The notes beneath the pieces were generated by a model. The model was not told the origin of the DNA, did no database searches, and was given only the letters and a program-made list of their open reading frames with translations. From an uncultured Legionellales bacterium (lineage in GTDB: Bacteria > Pseudomonadota > Gammaproteobacteria > JAHCLG01), in assembly GCA_964352905.1 (NCBI GenBank), contig CAYGTS010000002.1, positions 1 through 56,525 on the forward strand: a stretch of DNA of 56,525 nucleotides, given 5' to 3'. Position numbers and translations under genes: made by a program. Below, in pieces: positions 22,967 to 23,144 of the stretch (positions within the stretch are counted from its first letter, which is position 1; every line of letters begins with the position of its first letter).

Positions 22967-23144
22967 GTATCTATTCAGCAAATTTTAGTTGAATTTACTG
23001 AGAACGTTCAGATTTGGCGATAAAAACAGCGAAAATATTTTTGAGAAAGCGCAGTTTATGAGTTATAAATGAGCATTTCGATAAAAGATTTTCGCTGTTT
23101 TTAGCCCAAATATGGACGTTTCCGTCTACTTGGTGAATAGTTAC
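22967..23144 (+). mobile_element. family-1 full-length element (178 bp)
   Basis: Tips are GTATCTATTCAGC and GGTGAATAGTTAC. 8-bp repeat AAAAAGGT at 22959-22966 and 23145-23152. Confidence 0.9.

Follow-up and report, generated by a model that had tools for sequence, protein, structure and literature searches.

Positions 22,967 to 23,144 of contig CAYGTS010000002.1, from an uncultured Legionellales bacterium (assembly GCA_964352905.1), contain a short foldback repeat that is one copy of a non-autonomous transposon, a miniature inverted-repeat transposable element (MITE). It belongs to a family, F1, which occurs together with a second family, F2, in the 56,525-nt stretch of DNA analysed here (hereafter the window). 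Both families carry the same asymmetric pair of internal sequences, the X box and the Y box, on either side of a common apical core. Together with four further families, MG, J and K from other metagenomes or read sets and BK from a 'Candidatus Berkiella' metagenome-assembled genome (MAG), six families are now recognised, and we consider it highly probable that they form one MITE superfamily whose internal boxes are under selection. We also propose, with a little less than even confidence, that the boxes are protein-recognition sites used during mobilisation.

The focal element is a complete F1-family MITE of 178 bp which reads Y box, core, X box on the + strand. Its first letters are GTATCTATTCAG and its last letters GGTGAATAGTTAC, and its parts, with their positions in the window, are as follows.

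22959..22966, no strand: left target-site duplication AAAAAGGT, 8 bp, an exact match to 23145-23152
22967..22978, + strand: Y-side terminal inverted repeat (TIR) GTATCTATTCAG, partner of 23133-23144
22979..23001, + strand: B-type Y-side spacer with a small hairpin, AAATT...GAATTT
23002..23019, + strand: Y box GAACGTTCAGATTTGGCG, an exact pattern match and a column block kept in six families
23020..23048, + strand: Y-side arm of the long stem, 29 nt of family-specific sequence, paired with 23076-23103 and covarying between families
23049..23075, + strand: apical core GCGCAG-TTTAT-GAGTT-ATAAA-TGAGCA, with conserved flanks, a 5-bp covarying stem and a 5-nt loop
23076..23103, + strand: X-side arm of the long stem
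23104..23121, - strand: X box, AAACGTCCATATTTGGGC on the - strand, with exact CCATATTTGGGC at 23104-23115
23126..23129, - strand: GTAG motif (CTAC on +), immediately beyond the base of the long hairpin and only on the X side; F1, F2, J and K have it, MG and BK do not
23132..23144, - strand: X-side TIR GTAACTATTCACC
23145..23152, no strand: right copy of the duplication, AAAAAGGT

On the + strand the X box is seen as its reverse complement, GCCCAAATATGG, at 23104-23115. Other F1 copies have, at the place of the B-type spacer, a homologous C-type spacer, and the focal element is 91% identical to one F1 copy at 18398-18575. It lies 10 nt past the stop codon of the open reading frame (ORF) 22547-22957 and 15 nt ahead of the ATG of ORF 23159-23542, both neighbours being on the + strand. 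Its predicted fold is far more stable than those of shuffled controls, at -61.1 kcal/mol for RNA (z = -7.7) and -40.3 kcal/mol for DNA (z = -10.1).

The window, an entire contig of the MAG with a G+C content of about 39%, has a housekeeping gene content (aconitase, LptD, SurA, PdxA, ParC/ParE, glycolysis genes and others). Searches with BLAST and nhmmer found about 25 full and partial copies of F1 and F2 in these 56 kb, almost all of them intergenic and occupying nearly every intergenic gap. F1 is 178 bp long with GTAAC-type tips, and full copies begin at 7348, 18398, 22967, 48101 and 53871; F2 measures 172-175 bp, has CAG-type tips and is present in full at 5400, 7237 (interrupted), 29710 and 34507. 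The TIRs are GTAACTATTCAC / GTGAATAGTTAC in F1 and CAGCAATTCCCG / CGGGAATTGCTG in F2, perfect over 12-13 nt and extending to about 25 nt if mismatches are allowed. Within their 172-178 bp the elements contain at most one 59-codon open frame, and this in some copies only.

F1 and F2 can be aligned over about 140 nt at about 60% identity, with identical spacing of the conserved parts (X, 30 nt, TGCTCA, 15 nt, CTGCGC). Identity between the two consensus sequences is 100% in the X box and in TGCTCA and 83% in the Y box; it falls to 32% for either arm and to 38% for the Y-side spacer, with the tips at 45-58%. The original prediction, made from the letters of the window, that both families share one pair of boxes and a homologous core is borne out by these figures. 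The tips, which had been described as unrelated, have ATTC.C...GTAG..GGAAC in common, at 56-58% identity (F1 GTAAC-TATTCACC..GTAG..GGGAAC, F2 CAGCA-ATTCCCGG.GTAG..AGGAAC). Likewise, of the claim that the families differ only in the outermost 12-15 nt and in duplication length, the second half stands, with 8 versus 9 bp, while the least similar parts are the arms of about 28 nt, between boxes and core, and the Y-side spacer. In the window, the Y pattern GAACGNTCAGATTTG has 18 matches with up to two mismatches where 0.58 are expected, and the X 12-mer has 22 where 7.1 are expected; all nine exact X matches are inside elements.

Sampling of the other families was seeded, with conserved motifs for MG and BK and with a peptide profile for J and K. 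BK came from a scan of genome contigs with the Y-box pattern, in which the matches listed were mostly due to chance; the only genuine relative among them was L007, belonging to a 'Candidatus Berkiella sp.' MAG. BK also has CCATATTTGG and TGCTCA-N15-CTGCGC at equal spacing, and its arms are wholly different but still paired. The five MG copies, with CAG-type tips and 9-bp duplications, were obtained from a metagenome scan with CCATATTTGG-N30-TGCTCA-N15-CTGCGC and contain a Y box, TCAGATTTGAG, although this lay outside the query. J (JGI sample 3300077161, L025) and K (SRR21361958, L026) resulted from a peptide-profile search of 1.84 billion representative proteins, and both have F1-type tips, GTAG, the X box, the core and the Y box. 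As the box not used as query is also conserved (X and core in BK, Y in MG), the evidence for conservation is independent of how the families were found.

Between all families, identity ranges over 83-100% in the X box (CCATATTTGG), 72-94% in the Y box (TCAGATTTG) and 60-100% in the core TGCTCA-N15-CTGCGC, with TGCTCA alone at 100%; the ranges are 29-50% for the arms and 18-45% for the Y-side spacer. With more copies and four extra families the alignment still holds, and the boxes remain its best-conserved columns, as had been proposed. Since the arms are nearly all replaced while the boxes stay at 83-100%, the boxes would be selected sequences and not mere undiverged leftovers. On sequence comparison, both the common descent of F1 and F2 and selection on the boxes can be regarded as shown. 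The contrary explanation, that the boxes have no function and are leftovers of shared ancestry which are still undiverged, can draw on the single ancestor of all families and on the motif-seeded sampling of MG, BK, J and K. It appears to us very improbable, given arms at 29-50% and boxes at 83-100% in the same elements, the conservation in each case of the box left out of the search, and an asymmetry of X and Y which persists despite a demonstrated route for erasing it (the X-X copy described below).

Additional F1 copies were found in the same MAG by means of the peptide read through F1, which led to seven further ORFs with F1 on other contigs. Six such ORFs cover both arms; five are new copies that keep X and Y on opposite arms, and the sixth, P0121, is window copy 53871. 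Two proteins of the public protein library, P0129 (EamA-like transporter, 331 amino acids, aa) and P0130 (SpoU-like methyltransferase, 302 aa), have an in-frame F1 insert of about 60-70 residues each, and their source is most likely the same MAG. F1 together with its duplication amounts to 186 nt, or 62 codons, so that insertion keeps the reading frame. A BLAST search of plasmids with F1 and F2 gave only one 39-nt chance match, a scan of viral contigs with the X-core pattern gave no match, and a literal text search of the literature for the tip and box sequences returned nothing relevant. The Berkiella genome paper makes no mention of such repeats.

Read inward from the tip, the arms of F1 are GAACGT-CCATATTTGG-GC-TAAAAAC on the X side and GAACGT-TCAGATTTGG-CGA-TAAAAAC on the Y side, and those of F2 are GAACAG-CCATATTTGG-GCAATCTCACAT (X) and GAACGG-TCAGATTTGAG-GCAAGGTCACAT (Y). 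X and Y, judged from these arms, are the same arm sequence in two states and not two unrelated boxes. Because the two are nearly equal, the element amounts to one long imperfect palindrome, a foldback of about 120 nt, in which the boxes are the places where the arms have been kept different. As read from the alignments, all six families have C at box position 1 of X where Y has T, and five have T at position 4 of X where Y has G, J having its mismatch at position 3 (CCCTATTTGG vs TCATATTTGAG). An additional A is present in Y in five families, and further inward F2, MG, J and K have ATCT in X versus AGGT in Y.

The consensus fold of 11 full copies, computed with RNAalifold, consists of 47 pairs, with 94.9% of cells paired and 24 pairs changed on both sides. 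None of 500 shuffles reached the observed values, and partner columns that had been slid were only 32-47% paired. The six-family alignment keeps the 47 pairs, 24 of them compensatory, so that the conserved fold which had been suspected does exist, in the form of a covarying stem. The apical stem is found in the versions TTTAT/ATAAA, TGTAT/ATACA, CATAC/GTATG and TGTAC/GTACA; within F1 it is either G-C (TGTAT/ATACA) or T-A (TTTAT/ATAAA), and none of 13 copies has the mixed form.

Intrastrand template switching is a known mutational route in quasi-palindromes. The copy at 7348-7525, the only full copy of its kind, has X on both arms; its Y arm deviates from the normal sequence at four sites, all four of which are the exact complement of X, and this fits one template-switch event. 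The earlier rule that every full copy has X on one arm and Y on the other thus stands in general and fails for this copy. Since, as the X-X copy shows, the whole Y arm can be rewritten at once, we argue that the lasting differences between X and Y in six families are selected. The complementarity of the arms may be kept by selection on the hairpin or by intrastrand template switching, and both may act.

An 8-bp duplication flanks 7 of the 11 F1-type copies (5 exactly, 2 at 7/8 by eye), the other 4 being without a clean duplication, and a 9-bp duplication flanks all seven copies examined of F2, its short form and MG (1 at 8/9 and 6 exactly, of which one required its boundary to be shifted by 1 nt). 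The sequence of the duplication differs from site to site and its length is fixed by family. The F1 copy at 7348-7525 is inside the F2 copy at 7237-7597 and has an 8-bp duplication of its own; F2 arrived first and F1 was active afterwards. Family-specific duplications and a nested insertion establish insertion by staggered cuts, as in MITEs, and the two cut spacings, 8 and 9 bp, would imply two different transposases. No element copy was found in 38 kb of the two closest relatives (L023, L024), which have ParE identities of 82% and 77%, the second being labelled 'Legionellales bacterium'. As L024 is clearly syntenic with the window, this absence points to elements that are patchily distributed and have expanded in particular lineages.

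In the scheme that we propose, F1 and F2 would be branches of a single older superfamily of elements of about 175 bp. The scaffold common to all six families consists of a 12-13-nt TIR, a short spacer with, in four families, a one-sided GTAG, and an imperfect hairpin of about 120 nt in which one arm has the box in its X state (CCATATTTGG) and the other has it in its Y state (TCAGATTTG[A]G), with TGCTCA-(5-bp stem, 5-nt loop)-CTGCGC at the apex. Two trans-acting DDE-type transposases would make the staggered cuts, of 8 bp with GTAAC-type tips and of 9 bp with CAG-type tips. The arms would need nothing except complementarity; they turn over fully between families, with compensatory changes, probably aided by intrastrand template switching that copies arm onto arm. 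The X box, the Y box, the core flanks and the differences between X and Y, all held constant, would be cis-acting sites selected in those lineages that keep multiplying.

Copies other than the focal element were annotated in the window as follows.

1..49, + strand: F1 copy truncated by the contig start
1312..1390, + strand: short F1 form, X-side end joined to the Y box (GGGAATA directly followed by CCAAATCTGAACG), duplication GATTTGGA/GATTTGCA
5400..5571, - strand: full F2 copy, 9-bp duplication AACTTGGCT
5596..5659, + strand: short F1 form, two X-side ends flanking a 26-nt palindrome built on the X box (-15.5 kcal/mol, z = -4.6)
7237..7597, + strand: F2 copy split by the nested F1, 9-bp duplication ATGATCAAG
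7348..7525, - strand: full F1 copy nested in F2, X box on both arms, duplication GAAATTTT
18223..18289, + strand: short F1 form, the entire hairpin gone between GAACG and TTC
18398..18575, + strand: full F1 copy with A-type and C-type ends, X to Y on +, without clean duplication
24044..24162, + strand: variant F1v, with F1 tips and Y box and a GC-rich hairpin followed by a T run instead of X box and core, duplication AAAATTAG
29710..29883, - strand: full F2 copy, duplication CATAACAAG, overlapping the final codons of the MatE gene
34507..34678, + strand: full F2 copy, duplication ATATTTGGT
43830..43949, + strand: another F1v copy, sharing 90% identity with that at 24044, duplication GAATTATT
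48101..48278, - strand: full F1 copy, duplication GGTGGTTA, next to a partial X-side half at 48285-48340
53871..54048, - strand: full F1 copy amid fragments (53851-53870, 54080-54133)
54651..54698, + strand: short F2 form, 48 bp, 9-bp duplication ATAAGATGA
56474..56525, - strand: F1 copy truncated by the contig end

The short forms had been read as precise excisions of the central hairpin. The hairpin is indeed lost, and no special excision is needed, as the forms are more simply explained by post-insertion deletion between short direct repeats (GAACGT...GAACGT; CCAtAT...CCAaAT). Such repeats can be recognised by eye at the base of the hairpin: GGGAACG[T...GAACG]TTC at 18223-18289, CCAtAT.../CCAaAT at 1312-1390 and ACGG/CCGG at 54651-54698. 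Clusters of fragments stand beside full copies at 53840-54135 and 48285-48340; among the fragments are half an element from the X side and an X box fused to a B-type end. These clusters and the full copies without clean duplication (18398, 53871) suggest recombination or insertion among copies.

As to what the boxes do, the function we prefer is that a protein acting on the arms in mobilisation recognises them; candidates are an architectural or DNA-bending factor of the host and a conserved accessory contact, and the difference between X and Y would mark the two ends as unequal. The original prediction had taken the boxes for binding sites of a transposase or a host factor. Their specific conservation is borne out; a site specific to one transposase is made less plausible by the different tips and duplication lengths and by the insertion of F1v without X box and core. 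As candidate ligands, integration host factor (IHF), DnaA and Fis gave no convincing match to the boxes by eye.

Several observations weigh against parts of this scheme. Among 50 window ORFs scanned with Pfam there was no transposase, including no Y1/IS200-like enzyme and no transposase of the type associated with repetitive extragenic palindromes (REPs), known as RAYT. An autonomous element with these tips was not found either, the scans of public genomes and metagenomes having been aimed at element copies instead; as mere leads, F1 might descend from IS66 (GTAA tip, 8-bp duplication) and F2 from an ISAs1- or IS4-type element. F1v lacks the X box and the core, yet its two copies bear different 8-bp duplications, and so neither part is strictly required for insertion; F1v is rarer than the full form. 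The X-X copy has a clean duplication too. The six families cannot count as fully independent, and J and K also have part of an arm in common with F1. In all 11 copies tested, the Y-to-X strand gives the more stable RNA fold, by 0.2 to 14.2 kcal/mol over the X-to-Y strand. Mismatches and bulges that are conserved within a covarying hairpin are also what a folded single strand, be it DNA or RNA, classically shows. Finally, if the two tip types use different transposases, an internal site shared by both is not the simplest expectation. A more far-reaching reading is that the X-core-Y hairpin is an independent module, a folded nucleic acid whose conserved internal loops are read by a dedicated protein and which is carried in at least two transposon 'shells' that differ in tips and cut spacing. 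We regard this as unlikely. Were it so, the boxes would serve the module and not either transposase, and the module would be a widespread, undescribed structured element of Legionellales-type bacteria travelling as MITE cargo.

The mismatches and the bulge, conserved at fixed places in the covarying stem, also bear on the possibility that the scaffold acts as folded single-stranded DNA, as a REP-like, GTAG-tagged imperfect palindrome for a hairpin-specific enzyme (a RAYT/HUH-type Y1 transposase or an IS110/IS1111-type recombinase), enclosed by two pairs of TIRs. HUH enzymes and integron integrases read hairpins via such mismatches and bulges, examples being IS608, REP/RAYT and attC. In F1, F2, J and K the GTAG is one-sided and lies 2 nt outside the hairpin base, and the short form at 5596-5659 is a 26-nt GTAG-tagged palindrome on the X box. 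Moreover, QMITE2 of Coxiella has been described as a MITE with a GTAG REP that is targeted by IS1111 (PMC5896051). However, MG and BK have no GTAG, the hairpin of about 120 nt is to be compared with 20-40 nt for REPs (PMC3733652), a Y1 transposase was not found among the window ORFs, and duplications of 8 and 9 bp are not made by HUH transposition. The orientation of the elements along the + strand of the window is also unbiased, with 7 copies against 7. All in all, we think this explanation improbable.

The same fold could be that of a structured RNA, be it a small RNA produced by the element itself or a hairpin that acts in cis within the mRNAs of adjacent genes, on their stability, RNase III processing or termination. 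Correia elements are RNase III substrates and offer a precedent of this kind. The covariation is strong, the Y-to-X strand is the better folder in every copy, its non-Watson-Crick positions as RNA being G.U, G.A and G.G versus C.A, U.C and C.C, and many copies lie no more than about 25 nt from a stop codon. A further precedent is the small RNA CbsR16 produced by QMITE2 (PMC5896051). Against this, wobble pairs occur on both strands, and covariation alone cannot separate RNA from DNA hairpins. Relative to flanking genes, Y-to-X is the sense strand at about 5 sites and X-to-Y at 3-4; between co-directional neighbours the elements are in the Y-to-X sense at 22967, 5400, 29710 and 24044 and in L018, and in the X-to-Y sense in L020, L025 and L026. 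A promoter scan showed no enrichment, and inspection of the aligned cores by eye revealed no conserved promoter either. A candidate internal sigma-70 promoter in F1 (TTGAGA-17-TATAAA) was rejected, since its -10-like TATAAA merely forms one strand of the covarying apical stem and is not retained outside F1. Rfam 15 gave 0 matches at the gathering score, and up to E = 1 only a chance-level microRNA model at 30 bits against a cutoff of 90. Mixed gene orientation, the lack of a promoter and the lack of an Rfam match make an RNA relying on read-through from neighbours unlikely. The RNA alternative, which the original prediction had left beside protein binding, is thus upheld as regards the conserved fold and weakened as regards such read-through; as a whole we would not expect it to be correct.

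The setting of the copies is relevant to yet another proposal, in which the conserved parts lower the cost of insertion to the host, for example as a two-way hairpin that insulates neighbours from read-through, and the lineages carrying them persist. Almost every intergenic gap is filled, many copies directly follow stop codons, T runs on both strands flank the apical hairpin in several families, and F1v has exchanged X box and core for a GC-rich hairpin plus TTTTT. This hairpin has a terminator-like look. The apical hairpins themselves were tried as intrinsic terminators and rejected, as the consensus scan did not flag them and found 13 terminator-like sites where 18.9 are expected. A need for structure only would, besides, not fix the sequences of the boxes or the differences between X and Y, and we consider host tolerance a quite improbable reason for their conservation.

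Compared with known systems, the families are ordinary in kind, as MITEs that probably resemble QMITE2 of Coxiella burnetii, while their conserved interior is unusually clear. QMITE2 (Wachter et al. 2018, PMC5896051) is 150-190 bp long and bounded by TIRs of 23-29 nt. Its direct repeats, unique to each copy, measure 7-11 bp and in most cases 9, and it folds into a long hairpin of great stability that goes with a GTAG palindrome. Full-size and small versions exist, and copies tend to follow genes directly at the 3' side, some overlapping them by a few bases; one listed copy is at 1,380,514-1,380,685 in strain RSA 493. By its description it is the closest element known. Both come from the same bacterial order, and the elements of the window, at 172-178 bp, likewise have TIRs, duplications of 8 or 9 bp whose sequence differs from copy to copy, a long hairpin, GTAG by the hairpin base (F1, F2), short forms and a position mainly behind genes, with slight overlaps. 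Unlike QMITE2, which is described as one family, they combine two tip types and 8- or 9-bp duplications with a common interior, and no IS1111 insertions were seen. The C. burnetii plasmid QpH1 contains no copy.

GTAG-tagged REPs mobilised with RAYT (Di Nocera et al. 2013, PMC3733652) are 20-40 bp long and without TIRs or target duplications. The present elements resemble them in high copy number between genes and in a position often downstream of coding regions, and F1, F2, J and K also in the unpaired GTAG beside one end of an imperfect palindrome; the elements differ in that a palindrome of about 120 nt is inside a TIR-bounded element with 8-/9-bp duplications, that GTAG is lacking in two of six families and that the window has no RAYT. 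Correia elements of Neisseria and ERIC/IRU elements are foldback repeats found between genes, 100-160 bp long and conserved at a central site. They can be co-transcribed and cut as RNA hairpins, and complete copies occur next to internally deleted ones; the Correia type has an IHF site and duplicates TA. The likeness is in the intergenic foldback repeat with a conserved interior site and in the joint presence of full and internally deleted forms. In contrast to Correia/NEMIS, the duplications here are of 8 or 9 bp and the boxes have no match by eye to the IHF sequence WATCAANNNNTTR (the Y box agrees at about 6 of 9 defined positions). Rickettsia palindromic elements are palindromic repeats that can be present in frame within protein genes, without clear TIRs or duplications. 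The in-frame F1 insert in two proteins recalls them, whereas F1 has TIRs and duplications and most of its copies are intergenic.

Some further observations concern the surroundings of the elements. Three genes have 3' ends that run into elements, the PIN-domain gene 18481-19038 (-), the DUF1015 gene 46269-47564 (-) and the MatE gene 28349-29734 (+); the DUF1015 product has 431 aa in the window and 413 aa in relative L024. Genes of toxin-antitoxin type adjoin elements at 216-1305 (Xre-like antitoxin and RES-domain toxin), 5717-7231 (a 504-aa HEAT-repeat and PemK/MazF-like protein) and 18481-19038 (the PIN-domain protein). Window and L024 have the order rhodanese, secB, gpsA in common; a glutaredoxin gene, which is between rhodanese and secB in L024 (17568-19758), is absent from the window (41832-43805), and a partial F1 X-side half (42283-42326) is in its place. 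In L025, positions 5784-6091 contain two head-to-tail J copies, the second beginning where the Y-side end of the first is cut short; the pair is located between surA and the gene after it, whereas the window has no element at this junction (12983/12986). Logan contigs L001 and L022 (sample ERR3534981, carrying window proteins) end in element copies, as does the window. ORF 23159-23542, next to the focal element and without a Pfam match, has three tandem 48-nt repeats at 23336-23479, the later two 81% and 60% identical to the first, coding for a repeated 16-residue unit rich in Pro and Val.

Elements such as these break assemblies, both ends of the contig being in copies, and extend or interrupt gene calls, which matters for the annotation of MAGs. 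More generally, MITEs are usually defined by their tips and the interior is treated as filler; here the conserved part is the interior. Three boxes and the fixed differences between the arms persist over six families and at least five genomes or metagenomes, while arms, tips and cut spacing change. This amounts to a clean natural experiment on the cis requirements of a foldback transposon, with X, Y and core as defined oligonucleotides for binding tests, and it suggests that QMITE2 of Coxiella may belong to a wider superfamily of the Legionellales.

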